Shown here piece by piece: positions 744 through 8,729 of a stretch of DNA of 10,822 nucleotides. This DNA comes from Parcubacteria group bacterium Gr01-1014_20. Its GTDB lineage: Bacteria > Patescibacteriota > Minisyncoccia > UBA6257 > 2-01-FULL-56-20. Below the pieces are notes generated by a model. That model saw only the letters and a program-made list of their open reading frames with translations, had not been told where the DNA came from and ran no database searches. The DNA lies in NCBI GenBank assembly GCA_007376265.1, contig VMFW01000006.1:74930-85751 (forward strand), written 5' to 3'. Each line of letters opens with the position of its first letter. Within the stretch, counting starts at the first letter, position 1. The translations under genes were made by a program, and so were the position numbers.

Positions 744-771
744 AAAAAAGGGGCGACATTGCTGTCGCCCC
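744..771 (-). terminator. Rho-independent terminator closing the long minus-strand ABC operon
   Basis: On the minus strand: GGGGCGACA-gcaa-TGTCGCCCC followed by TTTTTTGAT (+ coordinates 771-741). It lies 15 nt downstream of the stop at 786. Confidence 0.75.
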
Positions 772-785
772 TTGAAGAGCTAAAT

Positions 786-989
786 TTATCCCTTTCTTTC
801 GGGTGAGTTCACCTGACCGCGTCGCCACACGATGATGACGATCCAGGCGATAAGCGCAGTGACAAGCACCGCCATCACGGCTCTCACGAGCCAGAAGGTG
901 GCAATGAAGACTGCGCTTACTATCGGTTGCACAAGAAGCAAACCGACCAGGATGCAGATGGCCCAGAAAATAATGGTGCCTGTTTTCAA
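786..989 (-). CDS. 67-aa two-TM micro-protein with a TTG start: (M)KTGTIIFWAICILVGLLLVQPIVSAVFIATFWLVRAVMAVLVTALIAWIVIIVWRRGQVNSPERKG
   Basis: A perfect SD AAGGAGG (1002-996) starts 1 nt after the ATPase stop TAA (1005-1003). A 6-nt spacer TCGGAG precedes TTG at 989-987. The ORF is open to TAA at 786-788 and encodes two hydrophobic helices plus a basic tail. The 146-aa track ORF 786-1226 is the same frame extended back over the ATPase gene and is not credible. Confidence 0.45.
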   Translation of the reverse strand: MKTGTIIFWAICILVGLLLVQPIVSAVFIATFWLVRAVMAVLVTALIAWIVIIVWRRGQVNSPERKG

Positions 990-1002
990 CTCCGACCTCC
1001 TT

Positions 1003-1854
1003 TTAGAGTGTTCTGAAACGAAGTTTAACTTCGCGGACAAGATCATGGAAGGCCGGCATGGCTTGAATGTCGGGATGCCAGGCCAGATCCATATCGATGA
1101 GATTGTAGGTATCCTGAATCCTGGCGCCGGGAATGATGGCGCCACTCGCATCGTGATCCCGACCCATGAGCCACAAGGTGTCGGAGACACTGATGGCGGC
1201 CGAGACATCGTGAGTGACGACCACAATTGTCATATGTTCATCAAGAGCTGAAACCTCATTGATGAGTTTCGCAACTTGATCCACCATGACGGGATCGAGA
1301 CCAGAGAAGGGTTCATCCATGAGTAAGACGGTGGTGGAGCAGAGCAGTTGTTGCGCGATGGCTACACGCTGGCGCTGACCGCCGGAGAGTTGACAGGGGT
1401 AAAAACTGGCTCTGTCCCGGAGACCGAAACGCTCAAGCAGAGCCACGCATTCCACCTTTGCCTCTTGCTTGGTGTAGCCACCTTTTCGAGCCGCAACCAT
1501 GAGATTGCTCAACACCGTTCGATGTTCGAAGAGACGATAGTCTTGGGCGACCACTCCAGCCAATCCGCGTTTTACGGGAACCAGCTGGTCGGATCCGGAA
1601 ACTGCGACCAGAATTTCGCCGCTCACTTTTGCATCCTTAGCGGCTGGATCTAGCCCGGCCATCAGATTAAAGAGTTGGGTTTTGCCAACTCCCGATGGCC
1701 CCAGAAAACCAACCACCTGTCCCTGGGTTAGCCCGGGTCGCGTGATGTTTCGAACTTCGGCGTTGACACCGGCAAGGATCTGCTTCCCCCCTAGTTGCAA
1801 GTGAACATCTTTCACCTGCAGGAGGGGCTCTGCCAAGTCATATTGGAATGGCAT
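1003..1854 (-). CDS. ABC transporter ATP-binding protein (TauT/NitT family, SsuB/TauB/NrtD-like)
   Basis: Walker A GPSGVGKT, ABC signature LSGGQRQR, Walker B LLMDEP, H-loop VTHD. An AGGAGG SD sits 5 nt upstream of the ATG (1854). The start lies 2 nt from the permease stop, consistent with translational coupling. Confidence 0.92.
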   Translation of the reverse strand: MPFQYDLAEPLLQVKDVHLQLGGKQILAGVNAEVRNITRPGLTQGQVVGFLGPSGVGKTQLFNLMAGLDPAAKDAKVSGEILVAVSGSDQLVPVKRGLAGVVAQDYRLFEHRTVLSNLMVAARKGGYTKQEAKVECVALLERFGLRDRASFYPCQLSGGQRQRVAIAQQLLCSTTVLLMDEPFSGLDPVMVDQVAKLINEVSALDEHMTIVVVTHDVSAAISVSDTLWLMGRDHDASGAIIPGARIQDTYNLIDMDLAWHPDIQAMPAFHDLVREVKLRFRTL

Positions 1855-1856
1855 TC

Positions 1857-2669
1857 CTACCTCCTATCCAGGGTTAGTCCTGCATGTGGGCACGCGAGAT
1901 TTTTCAATCCGCCCCAGCCGTAGTCTTGAATGAGACCAACGGTGATGATTATAAACTGAATGGCGAAGACCGCGCCTAGATTGAGATGCTTGTTTTCGTC
2001 CAAGAGCAGTTTACCAATACCACCGCCAGAGCGCACCAAACCTTCGACCATGGTGAGCATCATCCAGCCAATAGCAGCGTTGTCACGAATGACATCAAAC
2101 GCTTTGTCGAGAGTGCCACGAACGTGGACCTCCCAGACTACTTCCCACTCACTCATGCGAAGGGTGCGAGCGTGGTCCTTTTGGTTCTTGGTGATTCGTT
2201 CGAGAACGTTCGACATGTTGGCGATGTTGAAAGCGCTCATGCCAAATGTCATCAGTGCAAGTTTTAAAGAATGTCCACCTGCAAAGACGCTCATGAAAAT
2301 CACTAAAAGGCCGGTGAGACCCAAGAACCTCGCCTTTGAAAGCGCTTCGGCGACTGGCCGCATAATGGGCATAGCCGTGGAGTAGCAAATCAAAAGCGAA
2401 AGAACTGTTGAGAGCGCGACCACTTGAAAGTTAGTCATTAAGCTCTTCCAAAGCTCAAAGGCCAGGCCTTCGTTTTGGTAGAGACTTATGAACGACTGGA
2501 AAACCTCCAAGGGCCGAGGGATGATGTCTGGTGCCCAGTAGATCCAAATCAGGAAAGCGCAAGCAATCCAGAACGTGATGAAAATTCCCAGGGTCCTTTT
2601 GGAGATGGCCCTGTTCGGAGCGAAGGCGTTTTTTAATTCAAACCAAACGCCGTTTCCGTTTCCGTTCAT
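1857..2669 (-). CDS. ABC transporter permease, TauT family (SsuC/TauC/NrtB-like); proposed start at the internal ATG 2669 (MNGNGNGVWFEL...), 271 aa
   Basis: Multiple TM segments. EAA-loop region DHARTLRMSEWEVVWEVHVRGTL...AIGWMMLTMVEGLVRSGGGIGKLL is typical of SsuC/TauC-type permeases. The ATG at 2669-2667 is preceded by GAAAGGAGAAGAA (SD with about 7-nt spacing). The 39 codons the track adds upstream (to 2786) lack an RBS and run through a hairpin. Confidence 0.88.
   Translation of the reverse strand: MNGNGNGVWFELKNAFAPNRAISKRTLGIFITFWIACAFLIWIYWAPDIIPRPLEVFQSFISLYQNEGLAFELWKSLMTNFQVVALSTVLSLLICYSTAMPIMRPVAEALSKARFLGLTGLLVIFMSVFAGGHSLKLALMTFGMSAFNIANMSNVLERITKNQKDHARTLRMSEWEVVWEVHVRGTLDKAFDVIRDNAAIGWMMLTMVEGLVRSGGGIGKLLLDENKHLNLGAVFAIQFIIITVGLIQDYGWGGLKNLACPHAGLTLDRR
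2652..2666 (-). repeat. Short tandem hexamer (GGAAAC/GTTTCC, about 2.5 copies) encoding NGNGNG at the permease N-terminus
   Basis: + strand reads cgTTTCCGTTTCCGTTcat. Confidence 0.5.
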
Positions 2670-2672
2670 TTC

Positions 2673-2698
2673 TTCTCCTTTCTTTCTGCTAGTTGCTG
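2673..2698 (-). promoter_or_regulatory. Conserved 26-nt translation-initiation cassette AGCAACTAGCAG(A)AAGAAAGGAGAAG upstream of the permease gene (copy 2)
   Basis: Matches the element at 6559-6584 at 25 of 26 positions; both end in the SD 7-9 nt before an ATG. Confidence 0.4.
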
Positions 2699-2762
2699 AT
2701 ATGAAATTGTTAAATGGCAGGAATTTCTCCCAGCCTCCCTTTATCGCTAAAGAGAAGCTCGG

Positions 2763-2805
2763 AAAAATGCCCAACTCATAAATCATAAAGACTTTATGAG
2801 TTGGG
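2763..2805 (-). terminator. Weak intrinsic terminator or attenuator hairpin between the SBP-OmpA gene and the ABC permease gene
   Basis: Minus strand: CCCAACTCATAAA-gtctttatga-TTTATGAGTTGGG (13-bp AT-rich stem) followed by CATTTTTCC. Probably only partial termination, giving read-through to the transporter genes. Confidence 0.4.
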
Positions 2806-2810
2806 CGGTG

Positions 2811-2826
2811 TTGCTAGACAATTACG
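2811..2826 (-). promoter_or_regulatory. Third copy of the AATTGTCTAG(C) motif, in the intercistronic region upstream of the ABC genes
   Basis: Minus strand reads gtAATTGTCTAGCAAC. Compare gAATTGTCTAGAAcc at 6992-6978 and aTTTGTCTAGCt at 6928-6938. Confidence 0.3.
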
Positions 2827-2838
2827 GCGGAACTTTCG

Positions 2839-4662
2839 TTACCGCTGGGGTGTGCCCATCACGATCTGAACGCGACGATTTTCAGCCAAAGCGGCCGAAG
2901 TGTTCGCGTGATTGATCGGATCGAGTTCGCCGTGCGGAACGATCTGAATACGGCCTTGTGGGAAGGTGGTCGAGCCTCTCGACTCAAGCCACGACTTCAC
3001 CGCGCGGGCGCGCTTGTCAGACAGGAGCAAGTTGGTCTCGTCAGTGCCGACGCTGTCGGTGTGACCGTGAATAACCAACTGGAGATCACCAGCCACAACA
3101 GCCGAGTTGTTGATCGCCTCCAAGATTGGGTAGGCGTCAGCCATGAATTCGGCCGAACCGCTTCGGAAGTTGATGGTGTAATCTCTACTGGAAACCATCT
3201 GCTTCAAAGAAGTCGTGGTGCCGGCAAACGAAGGCACTTCCGCTTTACCGACCGTCTTTACGAGGCGTTGAGCCGCGAGTATGTACTGCGGATCAAAGAC
3301 TTCGGAGATCGGAGGATAAGATGGAACCAGGTTCGGATACTGCTGGACGACGATATCGCCGAAGACCTTGTAGGTCGCGGCATAGATATTCGGTCCACCA
3401 GCTAATCCGAAGAGGTGCAAGTTGTCGGCCAAGTTATTGACCTTCGAACCGCCAAGCTCCACTCGTAAGCCCTGGATGTCGGTTTCGGTAACGCCATGGA
3501 AGTAGCGTTCCCAGTAGGCCGGACCTGTTTCGGCTTCGTTGTAGAGAATGTCAGAAATCTCGGCGGCTTTCCGAAGAGCACGAGGATAGGTTTTCACCTG
3601 ATCGCCACCCTCGAAGATACCGGCCAACATATTGGCGACGATTTCTTTGTTCTCACTGCACCAGCGCTTGATGCCGACGATAGTGTTTGGCATTTGGTAA
3701 CTGTACTCCTTGGTCGAAACAATAGAGACAATGCCACCACGTTGCCGAGCCACGATGACATCACCGGGAGTCCACGTTACCACTCCCTGAACGGTGATGG
3801 TGGTATCGCGACCAGTTTTCTTGCCGGCAATGACGATTGGACGAGTTTCGCTGTAGCCCTGCACATAGAGCAGAGCCGCATGCTTGTAGTCGTCCGCGGC
3901 CACCCAGTTAAGAGCGGTCGGATCGTAGGTGGTAACATCGGGATTGTTTGGAATCCCATTGTCCCCGCACCACTTGATCGCGATGTTCCAGTCGCCGTCA
4001 GTTAGGTAACCAGCAACGACACCACCGCGAGCCTTTTGAGCGATGCGTTTCCACTCTTCGGGGCCCATGAACTTGTCTTCGCCACGTGAATATCCGTGAC
4101 TACCAACAATCACAGCAGTGTATTCTGGGCCGAGCTTGATCAAGGACTTGTTGACTCCGGCGATAAAAGCTGGAGCTCCATCACCCATGATCGAAACAAA
4201 GGCACAGGTGGTGGCTGGATCTGGGTAGGGGTTACCGTCCTTTACGGCTTGGGCGAAATTGAGCAGCTCAAGCTTCATCTTGTCGGCGTTGTCTTCTCGC
4301 CGATAATTCAGGTTGACACTGCGTTCCGCCATGATTGATCCCTTGGTAGGAGCCAGCCCACCGTTGGCGAGCGCTCCTCCCATTTGAGAGTTCCAAGCCC
4401 AAATGAGCGTGGTGAAGGGCGGTGTGCTTAGATAGGCTGGTTCGATCGAAGGCAAAGGGCGCTCCGGAATGTTTGAGGCACTCGGGGCGCTCGGATCCTG
4501 ACCCTGGGGCAGATTGGCCTTTTGAGGCACGATCGCCTGCTTGATCTTGGCCTTGGGCAAACTGATGAAATCAAGTTGCACGGCGGCGAAGAACAACCCT
4601 CCAACAACCACGGCAATGATGAGGAAACGCGAGAACCCCGTCAAGTTTTTCCAGAAAGACAT
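2839..4662 (-). CDS. 607-aa envelope protein: N-terminal TM anchor, NMT1/NrtA/SsuA-like (TauT-family) substrate-binding core, C-terminal OmpA/MotB-like peptidoglycan-binding domain
   Basis: SD AAAGGAG lies 8 nt before the ATG at 4662. One hydrophobic helix FLIIAVVVGGLFFAAV follows residue 10. The core segment CAFVSIMGDGAPAFIAGVNKSLIKLG resembles the N-terminal beta-strand/helix of NrtA/SsuA SBPs (GFIALTDAAPLIIAKEKGFF). The C-terminus FRSGSAEF...LVIHGHTDSVGTDETNLLLSDKRARAVKSWLESRG...NRRVQIV is a classic OmpA_C/MotB motif. The gene sits immediately upstream of TauT-family permease and ATPase genes. The CDS call is firm; the domain calls are by-eye homology. Confidence 0.8.
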   Translation of the reverse strand: MSFWKNLTGFSRFLIIAVVVGGLFFAAVQLDFISLPKAKIKQAIVPQKANLPQGQDPSAPSASNIPERPLPSIEPAYLSTPPFTTLIWAWNSQMGGALANGGLAPTKGSIMAERSVNLNYRREDNADKMKLELLNFAQAVKDGNPYPDPATTCAFVSIMGDGAPAFIAGVNKSLIKLGPEYTAVIVGSHGYSRGEDKFMGPEEWKRIAQKARGGVVAGYLTDGDWNIAIKWCGDNGIPNNPDVTTYDPTALNWVAADDYKHAALLYVQGYSETRPIVIAGKKTGRDTTITVQGVVTWTPGDVIVARQRGGIVSIVSTKEYSYQMPNTIVGIKRWCSENKEIVANMLAGIFEGGDQVKTYPRALRKAAEISDILYNEAETGPAYWERYFHGVTETDIQGLRVELGGSKVNNLADNLHLFGLAGGPNIYAATYKVFGDIVVQQYPNLVPSYPPISEVFDPQYILAAQRLVKTVGKAEVPSFAGTTTSLKQMVSSRDYTINFRSGSAEFMADAYPILEAINNSAVVAGDLQLVIHGHTDSVGTDETNLLLSDKRARAVKSWLESRGSTTFPQGRIQIVPHGELDPINHANTSAALAENRRVQIVMGTPQR

Positions 4663-4733
4663 TGTGTTGCTCCTTTCTCGTTTCTTGCTGCTGGTTTGCT
4701 TTCACAAACTGATTGCTTTTAGAGCTTCTCGAA

Positions 4734-5810
4734 CTAGTTGCCGAGGAGACGACGATTACGAGCCTGACCAGAACTTGATTGAGCACCGGCCTGTCTCAGT
4801 AAGCTTCCAACCTGTTCAGGTTTAGCGGTGGCTATTGCCTGACCCTCAATGGCGCTTTGAGCTGCGAGCTGAGCCGTATGCTGCTTTTTCTCGCGGATCC
4901 TTTGCAGTAATTCCCGCGAGGCAGATGCGTCTTTGAGCTTGCGGACAGCAGTGACGTCTTTGACCATCGACATGACGGATTCTACTTCGCCCATGGACTG
5001 GTGAATGCGTCGCCGCATAAAGTCCATAGACATTTCGTACATTTCCTTCATGCTGTCTCCACCGATAACGTCACCAACCTGACGGGCGAGCTTTGCGGTT
5101 CTTTTCGCCGCTTCATATTGGCTGATGAGTTTTTGAGTGAAGAACTTCATGGTCTGAAGCTCGTTTTTCAAAAACTGTTCGAGCTCCTTTAGGACGTCTC
5201 GCCAACCCTCGAGAAGCTCTCGATGGCTGCTAATCGCCGGAGCAGTTTCCTTACAGAAGGCTAACTGCTGGGCGAGCGAATTGAAAAGCATCTCGTCTTC
5301 GCTGCTTGCCCAAACATCGTTGGGGCATGAGCGATGAACAAGCTCTTCAATCATGCGCTCGAATTCCGCAATCTGCTTATTGTTTTTCTCCTCCTCCGCG
5401 ATAGCCATCTCAAGTTCTCCGTTGGCTGCAGATTTTGCTGCAACCGCACTTTGAAGCTTGGGCTGAACGTGATCGGAGACGTAGCTCTGAGAGACTTCCT
5501 GTGGAAGCGCCTGAGCGATTGTTTTGGCGGCCATTCTAGCGAATACATTAAAAAGCGTTCGCCCGATGGCCCAGGTTTGTTTTTGCGATAGGACAAAGAG
5601 AACGATGATCGTCGTCACTGCCAAGCCGATAAAAGCAAGCAGGGCGCCGAACATGTCTGTCGCACGCGTGAAGAGTTCCGTTAGCCAGGGAAGGGCTTTG
5701 TAAAGAGCCGTCCCCCCGACCGCGAAAACTCCCAAGGTGCCGAGAAACCCCCAGAACTTTTGTTCTTTCGTGAAAATATCTGGGAGCTTGAACTGCACTC
5801 CTGTTTCCAT
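4734..5810 (-). CDS. 358-aa membrane protein with two N-terminal TM helices and a long helical cytoplasmic domain (start at METGVQF...)
   Basis: SD AAGGAAGGAG lies 6 nt before the ATG at 5810-5808. The ORF track's extra 44 N-terminal residues would overlap the upstream gene's stop and have no RBS. TM1 is FWGFLGTLGVFAVGGTALY and TM2 is ALLAFIGLAVTTIIVLFVL, followed by about 250 aa rich in E/K/Q/L/A. Family unknown (TelA/XpaC-like is only a guess). Confidence 0.8.
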   Translation of the reverse strand: METGVQFKLPDIFTKEQKFWGFLGTLGVFAVGGTALYKALPWLTELFTRATDMFGALLAFIGLAVTTIIVLFVLSQKQTWAIGRTLFNVFARMAAKTIAQALPQEVSQSYVSDHVQPKLQSAVAAKSAANGELEMAIAEEEKNNKQIAEFERMIEELVHRSCPNDVWASSEDEMLFNSLAQQLAFCKETAPAISSHRELLEGWRDVLKELEQFLKNELQTMKFFTQKLISQYEAAKRTAKLARQVGDVIGGDSMKEMYEMSMDFMRRRIHQSMGEVESVMSMVKDVTAVRKLKDASASRELLQRIREKKQHTAQLAAQSAIEGQAIATAKPEQVGSLLRQAGAQSSSGQARNRRLLGN

Positions 5811-5838
5811 TGGTGCTCCTTCCTTTCTGCTCTTAGAG

Positions 5839-6552
5839 TTAGATGTGTGCCGAGATGGCGCTGGCCAAATCTGACAACCGCCCCGAGATGACGTCGTAGG
5901 CACTCTTGATTCGAGTTCCCACGGCTTCTTTCTCGGTATCAATGCGCCCGACTTCGTTCTGGAGATTGGCCTCTTCAGTTTTCAAGGCTGCGATCTCCTC
6001 TTGAAGTTCGCGGATGGATTGCTCGTGAGCAGTGACCTCTTTCGAGATCGCGTTCAAGCGAGCATTCTTATCCTGAGCGTTTCCACGAGCTTCGGTTTCC
6101 AGCTGGGTGCCGAAATCCTGATTCAAGTTTTCGACAATCTGGATACACTCGCGAACAGAAGCCAGAATCTCGTTTGGCCTTACACCGTGCACGCTGTTTA
6201 AAGCCGCCGGAATCAGCTTGTCTTCTTCGGTGATATAGACACCGAGAGTCGTTTTCTGCTGAAGGAACTCCGCGTAACCTCGTTTGGTCACTCCTTTGAG
6301 TGCGTCTTCGAAATCACGCAGGAACTCTGGATCCGGCGTCGCGACACTTAATTTGGCTGTTGCCAAACCCGTTCTTGCCGACGGAGGCGGGACCACCGTT
6401 TTCGACGGTGTTCCACCGGCCAAAAATGTTCGGCGGGTTCGCGCGGGGGGCATTGTGGATGGAGCAATATTCGACGATCGTGGCGGAGCTTCCGGAGTAC
6501 CAGAGCCCACGTCCGACTCGGTGCTTTTCACGAACAGATCCTTGAAAGCCAT
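5839..6552 (-). CDS. 237-aa protein with a Pro/Ser/Thr-rich disordered N-terminus (about 75 aa) and a C-terminal coiled coil
   Basis: SD AAAGGAGAAG lies 7-8 nt before the ATG at 6552. The N-terminus MAFKDLF...PPARTRRTFLAGGTPSKTVVPPPSARTG... has low complexity. The C-terminal segment NARLNAISKEVTAHEQSIRELQEEIAALKTEEANLQNEVGRIDTEKEAV has heptad character. The stop TAA at 5839 lies 28 nt before the next start. Confidence 0.8.
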   Translation of the reverse strand: MAFKDLFVKSTESDVGSGTPEAPPRSSNIAPSTMPPARTRRTFLAGGTPSKTVVPPPSARTGLATAKLSVATPDPEFLRDFEDALKGVTKRGYAEFLQQKTTLGVYITEEDKLIPAALNSVHGVRPNEILASVRECIQIVENLNQDFGTQLETEARGNAQDKNARLNAISKEVTAHEQSIRELQEEIAALKTEEANLQNEVGRIDTEKEAVGTRIKSAYDVISGRLSDLASAISAHI

Positions 6553-6558
6553 ACCGCT

Positions 6559-6584
6559 TCTCCTTTCTTGCTGCTAGTTGCTCT
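6559..6584 (-). promoter_or_regulatory. Conserved 26-nt translation-initiation cassette AGCAACTAGCAG(C)AAGAAAGGAGAAG upstream of the coiled-coil gene (copy 1)
   Basis: See the copy at 2673-2698. Related but degenerate versions precede the starts at 4662 (CAGCAGCAAGAAACGAGAAAGGAG) and 5810 (GAGCAGAAAGGAAGGAG). Confidence 0.4.
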
Positions 6585-6590
6585 GGTTTA

Positions 6591-6845
6591 CTAAGCTTTT
6601 TTCCCTGGGGGTCGAACGAACTTTGCGTTGTGAGCTCGCCAACCGGCGGCTTTTCCACGAATATCGCTAAGTTCGACTTTCGATCCACACTCGGGTTCGG
6701 CCACTTCTTTCCAGACACTTTTGTCCAGAGAAAAAGTAACTGAACCACCTTCCAGTTGATCAGATCGCGCCACGGCGTATTTGCCGTGAGGCCCATCGAT
6801 GACTTCCTGGACAATGCCTATGAATGCTTGGTTACGCTTAGCCAC
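6591..6845 (-). CDS. 84-aa soluble beta-rich (OB/SH3-like?) protein with a GTG start; first gene of the operon
   Basis: SD AGGAGG lies 6 nt before GTG (6845-6843). An overlapping ATG two bases upstream is out of frame. The sequence VAKRNQAFIGIVQEVIDGPHGKYAVARSDQLEGGSVTFSLDKSVWKEVAEPECGSKVELSDIRGKAAGWRAHNAKFV has alternating beta-strand character and no TM segment. Confidence 0.6.
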   Translation of the reverse strand: MAKRNQAFIGIVQEVIDGPHGKYAVARSDQLEGGSVTFSLDKSVWKEVAEPECGSKVELSDIRGKAAGWRAHNAKFVRPPGKKA

Positions 6846-6992
6846 ATTCTCCCTCCTTCTCCTGTGGGTTTTTGGGTTAGCGTTTTCAAAGGAAAACCAT
6901 TGCCTCCTTTCTTGGTTTCTTCCGTTATTTGTCTAGCTTTTATTTCAAAGAGCTAAACTATCTTTGAACCCAATGAGGGTTCTAGACAATTC
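6846..6992 (-). promoter_or_regulatory. About 147-nt structured 5' leader of the four-gene operon, with three stem-loops and a decoy SD/mini-ORF
   Basis: Hairpins lie at 6966-6982 (GAACCC/GGGTTC), 6944-6968 (TTCAAAG/CTTTGAA, whose arm overlaps the previous hairpin by 3 nt) and 6882-6897 (GTTTTC/GAAAAC). On the minus strand AAGAAAGGAGG lies 2 nt before ATG (6900-6898), followed by GTT TTC CTT TGA. Confidence 0.35.
6929..6989. promoter_or_regulatory. Inverted pair of TTGTCTAG / CTAGACAA motifs flanking about 45 bp at the start of the leader; candidate operator
   Basis: TTGTCTAG at 6929-6936 (+) and TCTAGACAA at 6981-6989 (+, equal to TTGTCTAGA on the minus strand). The latter sits at about +4 to +12 of the predicted minus-strand TSS. 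Confidence 0.35.
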
Positions 6993-6999
6993 GACTAAT

Positions 7000-7028
7000 A
7001 TATTACACGATTTATTTAAATTTGTCAA
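7000..7028 (-). promoter_or_regulatory. Sigma70-type promoter for the minus-strand operon (TTGACA-17-TAATAT)
   Basis: Minus strand: TTGACA (7028-7023), 17-nt spacer, TAATAT (7005-7000). The predicted TSS is near 6993. Confidence 0.5.
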
Positions 7029-7118: not shown

Positions 7119-8729
7119 ATGAAAAAAGTGGAGAAGCCCCAAGAATCTATTCTTGCCGGCTTTGCTCGTGAAACTGGGGAAATGATTGGCCGAATTCAGA
7201 GCATGCTTGAACCGAAGGAGGCAACTTTTACCCGAAAGCCTGGGGATGAATCATTACCAGTCGATCGGGAGGTAATCGAAGCTCAGCTTGACTTGCTTGG
7301 AGAACACCAAAAAATGCTTTCACAGATCGGTGAATCCCCGAGAATCTTGGCCACCGTGCTTGAGGTTTTGAGAACGGATGGCGAGGAAGCGAAAGTCATT
7401 ATTTTTTCGAGTGGGCGGAAACTAAGCGTCCCCCTTCTGGAGGGTCTTGAGGATCGCCAAGGCAAACTTCAAGCCGGTGATCTCGTAGAAGTTTCTCTCG
7501 ATACGGAACAGATCATCCAAAAGGCGAATTTCTTACCGAGAGGCGACGTGGTGACAGTAAAAAACATCATATCCCCTTCTCTCATTGAAGTTCAACACGG
7601 AGACACTCCGAAGGTCGTCTATCGAGGCAGGTTTTCTGACAATGGTCAGGCAATCGAAGCCGGAGACAGGGCATACCTAGACGAAGGTGGAATGATCGTC
7701 GTTGCAAATCTCGGAAAAGATGAAAGTCGATTCCGGGTTACTGATTTCCGTCGAGTGGAATGGGACGAGATTGTTGGGCTTGACCGCGTTAAGCAGGAAC
7801 TAATGGACGCGGTCATCTACCCAGCCCTTCACCCCGAACTCTATCGACGTTACCGTCAGACCTTTGGTCGCGGAGTGGTTCTGCTTGGACCTCCCGGATG
7901 CGGAAAGAGTATGCTCGCAAGAGCCGTCATCACCGAGATCGCGAATCGATATGGTCCCGAAGGACTAGCTTCTGGAGCGATCTTTCTCAAAGGTCCCGAA
8001 TTTCTAACAAAATACGTCGGGGATTCCGAGGAGATCATTCGCTCGATTTTCGAGAGGACCAGGCGCCACAAGAAGAAGTTTGGTTGGCCAGCGATCGTGG
8101 TGGTGGATGAAGCGGAGGCGGCCTTTCGCAAACGCGGAAGTGGTAAGAGTTCCGACGTTGAAATTACCACAACCACAACCTGGAACGCGGAAATGGACGG
8201 CATGGAGGAGTCTGGCGCGTTTTTTATCCTAGCGACCAACAGAGTTGATCTCATTGACGGGGCAATCCTGCGAGATGGGCGAGTTGATTTGAAAATCACA
8301 ATCGACCGGCCGAACCAGGAGAGCGTTCGAGGAATCTTTGAGAAAAACTTCACCGGCCTTCCTCTTCAGGAGACAGCAGCCGAACTCGCAGCTTTCGCGG
8401 CGCATGAATTTTTCTCTGACCAATTCCCACTTTTCGAGATTAAGCGAATCTCCGTTCCGGAGCCACTCAAGTTTTCACTTCGTGACATCGTAAACGGAGC
8501 GATGATTGTGGCCATCGCGAGTGCGGCGGCCAAGGTCTCGATTCGTCGAGAACGTGAAACCGGAAAGGAATCGGCGATTACCCGAGAGGACGTCCGGCGG
8601 GCCATTGCCGACAAGCAAGCAGAGTGTTTGCGTCTCGACTGGAGTGACGAATTGGCTGACTTTACCCACGATTTTAACCTGGATGTCATTGACATCAGCA
8701 AGGTTGTCCAGGGTCAAACTACGAAGTAA
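7119..8729 (+). CDS. arc: AAA+ ATPase of the ARC/Mpa (proteasome-associated ATPase) type: N-terminal coiled coil, tandem OB-like interdomain, one AAA module; no GQYL tail
   Basis: Walker A GPPGCGKS, Walker B VVVDEAE. The segment GKSSDVEITTTTTWNAEMDGMEESGAFFILATNRVDLIDGAILRDGRVDLKITIDRPN closely parallels the Mpa/ARC segment [20 protein letters not shown]...[28 protein letters not shown]. Residues 1-70 are helical (LEPKE...QLDLLGEHQKMLSQIG). Residues about 75-215 are beta-rich with G/D turns (OB-like). The C-terminus is ...VVQGQTTK. Confidence 0.9.
   Translation: MKKVEKPQESILAGFARETGEMIGRIQSMLEPKEATFTRKPGDESLPVDREVIEAQLDLLGEHQKMLSQIGESPRILATVLEVLRTDGEEAKVIIFSSGRKLSVPLLEGLEDRQGKLQAGDLVEVSLDTEQIIQKANFLPRGDVVTVKNIISPSLIEVQHGDTPKVVYRGRFSDNGQAIEAGDRAYLDEGGMIVVANLGKDESRFRVTDFRRVEWDEIVGLDRVKQELMDAVIYPALHPELYRRYRQTFGRGVVLLGPPGCGKSMLARAVITEIANRYGPEGLASGAIFLKGPEFLTKYVGDSEEIIRSIFERTRRHKKKFGWPAIVVVDEAEAAFRKRGSGKSSDVEITTTTTWNAEMDGMEESGAFFILATNRVDLIDGAILRDGRVDLKITIDRPNQESVRGIFEKNFTGLPLQETAAELAAFAAHEFFSDQFPLFEIKRISVPEPLKFSLRDIVNGAMIVAIASAAAKVSIRRERETGKESAITREDVRRAIADKQAECLRLDWSDELADFTHDFNLDVIDISKVVQGQTTK

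Follow-up and report, generated by a model that had tools for sequence, protein, structure and literature searches.

A divergent PspA-like protein with its own predicted membrane anchor shares a conserved gene cassette with a putatively wall-tethered ABC importer, on a contig named as Parcubacteria and in huge-phage contigs

What is encoded by four tightly packed genes, three of them without a recognised family, that run directly into the genes of an ATP-binding cassette (ABC) importer? The question is raised by a stretch of 10,822 nucleotides (nt), here called the window, which covers positions 74,930 to 85,751 of VMFW01000006.1, a 124-kilobase (kb) metagenomic contig with the NCBI name ‘Parcubacteria group bacterium Gr01-1014_20’. 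Genes a, b, c and d are minus-strand open reading frames (ORFs), separated by gaps of 38 (a-b), 28 (b-c) and 71 nt (c-d) and each preceded by an extended Shine-Dalgarno (SD) site, exactly as had been described in an earlier reading made from the letters alone (hereafter the sequence-only reading). That reading took the four to be a unit situated upstream of an importer. Instead, a-b-c-d appears to be the front part of a seven-gene operon, of which the conserved core is formed by b, c, d, a permease and an ATPase. Within this core, d appears to be the importer’s own binding protein, c a divergent member of the PspA family and b a homologue of a protein that accompanies PspA in bacteria. We are fairly confident about the identity of these parts and of the unit that they form, and considerably less so about the mechanism that might couple them.

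The evidence is best introduced with d (2839..4662, minus strand), a predicted membrane-anchored substrate-binding protein of 607 amino acids (aa) with a putative peptidoglycan tether. A signal-anchor helix at its N-terminus (residues 12-30; 4573..4629, minus strand) is followed by a Pro-rich linker of ~50 aa, while its C-terminus consists of an OmpA-like peptidoglycan-binding domain (residues 495-605; 2848..3180, minus strand). The description of d as a transmembrane (TM)-anchored protein ending in an OmpA domain therefore stands, but what lies in between had been overlooked: residues ~80-470 (3253..4425, minus strand) are predicted to form a class II periplasmic-binding-protein domain of the TauA/NrtA/CmpA/SsuA/ThiY type. 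The AlphaFold model, built on 42 homologues, reaches a mean predicted local distance difference test (pLDDT) score of 88.5, places a helix at 9-29 and has low pLDDT over 34-59. When this model was compared with the PDB using Foldseek, the central domain matched TauA, NrtA, CmpA, SsuA and ThiY at a probability of 1.0 and target-normalised TM-scores of 0.63-0.74 (entries 6ssy, 2g29, 2i48, 3ix1, 3uif, 3ksj and 2x26), and the C-terminus matched the peptidoglycan-binding domains of OmpA and Pal. The latter domain also reaches 53.1 bits against PF00691, for which the cut-off is 27.2, and has Pal and OmpA as its PDB matches. Its residues D536 and R551 do not vary across 42 homologues, and we take them to be the equivalents of the residues by which OmpA/Pal contact peptidoglycan. 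The d of the window itself gives no match to NMT1, NMT1_2 or Phosphonate-bd in Pfam, and a distant homologue in another locus (L095) is assigned by Pfam to NMT1/NMT1_2/Phosphonate-bd plus OmpA. This L095 protein, in which NMT1 is called, is shorter (515 aa).

Permease and ATPase genes follow d in all 42 bacterial and all 45 viral loci for which full flanks were available, and the operon of the window holds no binding-protein gene other than d. Together with the TauA/NrtA-type fold of the model, this leads us to regard d as the substrate-binding protein of the adjacent NitT/TauT-like importer, tied to the membrane at its N-terminus and presumably to peptidoglycan at its C-terminus. The permease (270 aa; 1857..2669, minus strand) starts from an ATG preceded by GAAAGGAG, scores 28.1 bits against PF00528 (cut-off 26.4), and shows weak matches to TauC, SaoP and NtrB. 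The ATPase (283 aa; 1003..1854, minus strand) scores 84 bits against PF00005 and carries a conserved C-terminal extension of ~50 aa, a candidate regulatory or docking domain. This extension (1003-1160, minus strand) lies beyond the nucleotide-binding domain and is the same in the bacterial homologues inspected, with for example GRD..D..G.IIPGA.I...YNL...LAW. The d protein thus has the central fold of TauA, SsuA, NrtA, CmpA and ThiY and, like them, adjoins a BPD_transp_1 permease and an ABC ATPase. Unlike these proteins it is tethered at both ends, by an N-terminal anchor that looks uncleaved and by the OmpA-like domain. Relatives of d were found in 453 stretches in a scan of one genome per species, and over 2,656 homologues of its residues 60-490 exist, ~600 aa long and 53-61% identical, in Acidobacteriota, Armatimonadota and other phyla, all of them annotated merely as ‘OmpA family protein’.

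The placement of d within the importer bears directly on the idea that a, b, c and d build a four-protein trans-envelope complex, comparable to Tol-Pal or MotAB, that merely happens to lie upstream of an unrelated ABC importer. The products do span the cytoplasm, the membrane and the peptidoglycan, as the sequence-only reading had proposed, and standard libraries yield no family for a, b and c, both of which fit such a complex. However, d is a TauA/NrtA-type binding protein and the only one that the operon offers to the permease and ATPase, and the three genes accompany one another in practically all loci, whether b and c are there or not. Furthermore, gene a is not conserved, and none of the proteins matches TolQ, TolR, TolA, TolB or MotA in Pfam or NCBIfam, the OmpA domain being all that they have in common with either system. 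We consider a separate complex of this kind very improbable.

How far does the operon extend? Seven minus-strand genes lie at 786-6845, namely a, b, c, d, the permease, the ATPase and an ORF for a 67-aa membrane protein, and each of them is preceded by an SD of one and the same type (AGGAGGGAG before a, GAAAGGAG before b and d, and GAAAGGAAGGAG before c). Upstream lies a promoter-like site (TTGACA, a 17-nt spacer and TAATAT; 7000..7028, minus strand), which at 10/12 is a consensus match only, with -35 and -10 blocks that are invariant across three related leaders. The far end is marked by an intrinsic terminator-like hairpin with an 11-bp stem, seven G-C pairs and a T run (748..773, minus strand). 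It is the only strong one, no comparable minus-strand terminator being present between it and gene a. Since these two signals bracket the seven genes, the operon most probably comprises all of them, an extent that rests on consensus matches and gene spacing. The earlier picture of an operon upstream of an importer is thus right insofar as one packed operon runs into a NitT/TauT-like importer, but d belongs to that importer and the unit continues beyond d.

In bacteria, the neighbours of d are telling. Clustering of the genes of bacterial loci around d yielded four recurrent ones. Cluster 3 (~305 aa) combines a membrane hairpin with a helical domain, and cluster 5 (~233 aa) has a short N-terminal motif, then a Pro-rich linker, and a coiled coil. 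The other two are PspA (PF04012), whose gene immediately precedes d, and an AAA+ ATPase of ~590 aa. This bacterial PspA-ABC arrangement was recovered in loci of Acidobacteriota, Armatimonadota and Myxococcota. In one of the Armatimonadota loci (L006), a full-length homologue of phage T4 gp30.3 (PF08010, E 3.5e-54) is encoded at 11504-11965, an insertion that separates the gene of the membrane-anchored helical protein from that of the ABC ATPase.

Gene c (4734..5810, minus strand) occupies, in the window, the position that PspA has in these bacteria. It encodes 358 aa from an ATG, while the mechanically called ORF runs to a TTG at 5942. As the sequence-only reading had it, c consists of two hydrophobic helices and a domain that is all-helical in the model. 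Residues 19-76 (5583..5756, minus strand), read from the sequence, would form a two-helix transmembrane hairpin. Modelled helices span 15-51 and 56-75, and residues G21 and P41 hardly vary within the family. Positive charges on both flanks of the hairpin imply that both of its ends should be cytoplasmic. A PspA-like helical domain is predicted for residues 77-328 (4827..5582, minus strand), comprising an alpha0-like helix (77-101), a long hairpin (103-161 and 170-249) and helices 254-291 and 295-328. As a whole, the AlphaFold model (pLDDT 78, and above 90 over the hairpin) consists of a membrane hairpin, a short helix, a long hairpin and three further helices. The C-terminal tail (4734..4760, minus strand) ends in RNRRLLGN.

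A full HMMER search of 1.84 billion representatives returned 53 relatives of c, of the same length and at ~20% identity. Comparing the c family with the PspA genes next to d in hhalign gave a probability of 83.6%, and comparing a larger, mostly viral alignment with bona fide PspA gave 90.4% (E 1.4e-6, 106 columns), against 2-13% for three other helical families of these loci that served as controls. The first of these comparisons pairs residues 87-160 of c with 5-79 of PspA, and the profile similarity spans helices alpha0 to alpha3. Moreover, in 13 bacterial loci a hidden Markov model (HMM) of the c family matches (E 2e-6 to 1e-4) the PspA gene that immediately precedes d. PF04012 matches were obtained in 3 of 47 and in 1 of 45 c relatives, all below threshold, with a best E of 8.4e-5. 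In a profile search with c, Vipp1 took the top two places among 177,635 PDB sequences (E 0.002), the match beginning at Vipp1 residue 23, where the long hairpin starts, and Vipp1 also made up eight of the top nine Foldseek matches of the c model, at probabilities of 0.99-1.0. From these results we conclude that c belongs, as a divergent and membrane-anchored member, to the PspA/IM30/Vipp1 family, and thereby to the ESCRT-III superfamily. The assignment follows mainly from the sequence profiles and the conserved gene position, and the fold is consistent with it without being diagnostic. The long hairpin and shorter helices predicted for c would be compatible with PspA, IM30 and Vipp1, and like these the protein would be membrane-associated. 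In contrast, PspA and Vipp1 in their classical form are soluble proteins that use the amphipathic alpha0 to bind membranes, whereas c would be an integral membrane protein, and no PspB, PspC or PspF partner is encoded at the window. The comparison with Psp that the sequence-only reading had offered was an apt one.

Gene b (5839..6552, minus strand) encodes a predicted cytoplasmic protein of 237 aa, with an N-terminal motif MAFKDLFVK, a Pro-rich linker, a helical domain and a coiled coil, so that the Pro-rich head and coiled-coil tail first ascribed to it are borne out. An early hhalign comparison between b and cluster 5, with 4-5 sequences, gave 34% and was too weak. With 46 sequences the b family is paired with this bacterial partner at 95.5% probability (E 1.4e-8). 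Furthermore, the b-family HMM matches cluster 5 proteins with E down to 4e-12, and an intermediate protein, in locus L094, matches both profiles. On these profile comparisons, b is a homologue of the ~230-aa partner protein of bacterial PspA-ABC operons. Given that homology, the Acidobacteriota order of cluster 5, PspA, d, permease and ATPase is colinear with b, c, d, permease and ATPase in the window. The N-termini of b proteins share a motif of the type x-K-D-L-F-V-x-E-E, followed by the Pro-rich linker, and in many relatives of c a variable linker leads to a C-terminal motif of the type aromatic-x-[D/E]-L-[L/F]-K. The N-terminal motif of b (6526-6552, minus strand) and the C-terminal motif of c (4734-4760, minus strand) resemble each other. 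Both may be docking motifs, and may share one partner.

The view that a, b and c cannot be assigned at all therefore needs to be split. Pfam, NCBIfam, PADLOC and PHROGs indeed return coiled-coil noise and nothing else, but c is PspA/IM30-like and b falls in the partner family of the PspA-ABC operons. Matches to PspA profiles, which the sequence-only reading had singled out as what would place these proteins, do exist for c, below the Pfam thresholds, while a and b remain without a named family.

Do b, c and d belong together outside the window and its immediate relatives? A word-indexed homology search recovered only three relatives of b and three of c, every one from a contig with the entire neighbourhood in common, and synteny of b and c in such close relatives says little about functional linkage. 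Likewise, BLAST of b, c and the AAA+ protein of the window against the PspA, the 234-aa protein and the AAA protein of an Acidobacteria locus (L007) found nothing beyond the AAA core. A wider set of 56 loci includes 53 viral contigs of IMG/VR and the GenBank phage LR756500.1. On one strand and in one order, b is present in 48 of these, directly upstream of c, c in 50, d in all 56, the permease in 51 and the ATPase in 55, and no flanking gene family is common to more than five of the loci. A unit of a-b-c-d is not supported here: gene a is missing outside close relatives, and what is conserved is b-c-d-permease-ATPase.

Scanning IMG/VR with an alignment of d brought up 53 viral contigs, many of them 100-530 kb long, with a guanine-cytosine content of 25-65%. 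The GenBank phage LR756500.1 (462 kb; region 368086-389696) likewise carries c, d, permease and ATPase and, upstream of its c, an ORF assigned to the b family by clustering. In locus L094, where the c relative has 22% identity, genes for an ARC-like AAA protein, b-like and c-like proteins, d, permease and ATPase lie on one strand and adjoin those for ribosomal proteins S12, S7 and L28. Locus L095 places the cassette on a 351-kb scaffold with phage-like content and mostly unannotated genes, which looks like a huge phage. Searching the viral collection with its c protein returned no matches. Around this L095 cassette (1-16984), RlaP, an ART-PolyVal ADP-ribosyltransferase and a ClpP-like protease are encoded.

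Counted over the loci with full flanks, the two cassette types separate cleanly. The 42 bacterial loci have no c-type gene, and hold the b family in 2, cluster 3 in 39, cluster 5 in 24, PspA in 13 and the two-domain AAA in 15. The 45 viral loci from IMG/VR have c-type in 43, the b family in 41, clusters 3 and 5 in one each, and neither PspA nor the two-domain AAA in any. The window is of the second, anchored PspA-like type (its clade gives no match to the cluster 3 HMM), and among the collections searched this type occurs mainly in huge-phage contigs. Common to both is that some ESCRT-III-like gene adjoins the transporter, in 40 of 42 bacterial and 44 of 45 viral loci.

This distribution raises the possibility that the window itself stems from a huge phage that was mis-binned as Parcubacteria, its cassette being an auxiliary module expressed in infection, which would preserve the integrity of the host membrane and bring in a nutrient over a long replication cycle. 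The same b/c-type cassette in 53 IMG/VR contigs and in LR756500.1, and its absence from the 42 bacterial loci with full flanks, speak for such an origin, as do the flanking genes of the viral cassettes, which strongly match PHROG families (phrog_2426 with E 1e-180 and 1e-153, a clamp loader and DNA ligases). Two neighbours that could point to a viral origin are encoded on the contig of the window, outside the window itself (locus L001), namely a 141-aa protein at 2769-3194 and a PolB-exonuclease/RNase H-like protein (phrog_403) at 16177-16884. The former resembles phage L-alanyl-D-glutamate peptidases or 3D-domain proteins. However, the NCBI record names a Parcubacteria metagenome-assembled genome, no capsid, terminase or tail gene occurs within the 21-kb neighbourhood, and L094, with its ARC-like ATPase and its b/c-type genes beside S12, S7 and L28, indicates that cellular carriers exist. 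SOD, TGT and a sigma-70 factor are also encoded in this 21-kb stretch. We hold a phage origin to be a serious possibility without thinking it the probable one. It concerns where the cassette comes from and what it is for, and is compatible with the molecular assignments of a to d and of the ABC genes given above.

A bacterial form of the cassette has already been published, from computational analysis only. Ravi et al. 2024 (mSystems, PMC11237479) reported in silico a bacterial operon of PspA, a PBPb+OmpA protein, a permease, an ABC ATPase, a TM+Snf7 protein and an inactive-AAA+AAA protein. The arrangement is given there in two sentences and a supplementary table, with OGG56892.1 of Candidatus Handelsmanbacteria as an example, and phage-borne copies are not mentioned. 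Shared with that operon are permease and ATPase genes behind that of an OmpA-domain binding protein, a gene of the PspA family immediately before the latter, the coiled-coil partner homologous to b further upstream, and an associated AAA+ ATPase. Unlike its counterpart, the PspA-like protein of the window has its own two-helix anchor and is too divergent for Pfam. Other differences are that the window has no separate TM+Snf7 gene downstream of the ATPase, adds gene a and the 67-aa membrane ORF, and has an AAA+ protein that is ARC-like, single-domain and encoded on the opposite strand, where the bacterial one has two domains. The anchored PspA-like family, b as its conserved partner, the mobile five-gene unit and its abundance in huge phages were not found in the literature searched, nor was any report of the cassette in large phage genomes.

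That AAA+ ATPase (7119..8729, plus strand) is transcribed divergently from the operon, and a second promoter-like site serving it stands back to back with the one at 7000-7028. It has one active AAA domain, with Walker and pore-loop motifs (GPPGCGKS, VVVDEAE and KYVG) that read as intact. Against the ARC/Mpa model TIGR03689 it scores 268.3 bits over residues 58-502, below the equivalog cut-off of 504.75. Its architecture is ARC-like, without the protein being an equivalog. A clear homologue (E ~1e-117) in L094 lies on the same strand as, and directly upstream of, the b-c-d-ABC genes, and another is found near the cassette in locus L123. Membership of this ATPase in the system is plausible. As in ESCRT-III with Vps4, a hairpin protein is here encoded next to a classical-clade AAA+, and the C-terminal motif of c could dock to it. 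In contrast to that pair, the ATPase of the window has ARC-type N-terminal domains and no MIT domain, and the association is seen in few lineages.

So how might these parts work together? The binding domain of d would be held between membrane and wall and would pass a small solute on to the permease. Beneath the membrane, in the cytoplasm, c may polymerise into a scaffold of ESCRT-III type, by which the membrane around the transporter would be stabilised or reshaped, while b would bridge c to another component via its short N-terminal motif and coiled coil. Where present, the ARC-like AAA+ could disassemble or remodel the c/b assembly, as Vps4 does for ESCRT-III. Taken further, the locus would represent a portable five-gene cassette of huge phages and some ultra-small bacteria, in which an anchored ESCRT-III-like polymer and its adaptor are coupled, in a mechanical or a regulatory way, to a wall-tethered importer and the polymer is serviced in some lineages by an ARC-like AAA+ unfoldase, with phages using it to remodel or protect the host membrane. 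This we offer tentatively, as a proposal that we ourselves hold to be somewhat doubtful.

Several observations weigh against the assignments and the mechanism given above. The c protein of the window has no Pfam match at all, not reaching the PF04012 gathering score of 33.9 bits, its Foldseek E-values against Vipp1 are only 0.07-0.16, and the PspA evidence for c as a whole lies below curated thresholds. Nor does c show detectable similarity to the bacterial membrane-anchored helical ‘TM+Snf7’ family (cluster 3), hhalign giving 0.3% with 4-5 sequences and 8% with larger alignments. The ARC-like AAA+ is near the cassette in three lineages only (the window clade, L094 and L123) and absent from most loci, and with the two-domain AAA of the bacterial operons it shares only the AAA core, at 26% identity over 182 residues. 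Moreover, the substrate, the polymerisation of c and the coupling of transport to remodelling are all things that we infer.

A defence system had been among the options of the sequence-only reading, and no support for one was found. In such a role, anti-phage defence or superinfection exclusion, a wall-tethered sensor and a membrane scaffold would detect or block phage. PspA responds to phage-induced envelope stress, exclusion genes are frequent in huge phages, and the OmpA domain of d resembles that of ZorB (PADLOC E 1e-8), all of which would suit such a role. On the other hand, the PADLOC matches involve only coiled-coil noise, AAA cores and an OmpA domain of generic kind. The genes include no effector such as a nuclease or toxin, and the permease and ATPase are ordinary components of a type I importer. 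Defence is, in our estimation, unlikely.

Outside the conserved core, the operon begins and ends with genes of narrow distribution. Gene a (6591..6845, minus strand) has a GTG start and encodes a lineage-specific, soluble protein of 84 aa, which is 73-89% identical in close relatives, absent from all other cassette loci, and without a family in Pfam, NCBIfam, PADLOC or PHROGs or a match in the PDB. In related contigs, c is 59-74% identical, and b is 77% identical to its closest full-length relative. The conservation of a, b, c and d in related contigs argues that all four are real genes. At its other end, immediately ahead of the terminator, the operon has the ORF of 67 aa (786..989, minus strand), with two predicted hydrophobic helices and a TTG start after AAAGGAGG. 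A 68-aa counterpart is found in close relatives only, and it is not conserved in the other loci.

Gene a is preceded by a conserved leader of ~148 nt (6846..6993, minus strand) with three predicted hairpins, one of which pairs GAAAGGAGG with UUUUCCUUU, a putative structure based on three sequences only. The leader is unusually conserved in these three relatives, with long invariant blocks, and an Rfam search with it matched no family. It could be a regulatory RNA, which would hint at the ligand of the transporter. A five-codon ORF for MVFL (6886-6900, minus strand), located behind a perfect GAAAGGAGG site, was rejected as a leader peptide on the grounds that its ATG is not conserved in relatives. 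It is probably part of the leader hairpin.

The recognition of PspA and Vipp1 as bacterial ESCRT-III proteins is recent. According to a 2025 review (PMC7619361), a Vps4-like ATPase appears to be absent in bacteria, which leaves open how PspA and Vipp1 polymers are regulated. For that question the present locus offers a compact linked set, of an anchored PspA-like protein, an adaptor, a transporter and, in some lineages, an AAA+, the transporter almost never being found without an ESCRT-III-like neighbour. If the AAA+ does service the polymer in some lineages, the two would form an equivalent of ESCRT-III and Vps4 in bacteria and viruses. The assignment of d would furthermore give a function to a family of over 2,600 proteins now annotated as ‘OmpA family protein’, and the recurrence of the cassette in huge phages would extend the known repertoire of these viruses by membrane-remodelling machinery and a wall-tethered importer.

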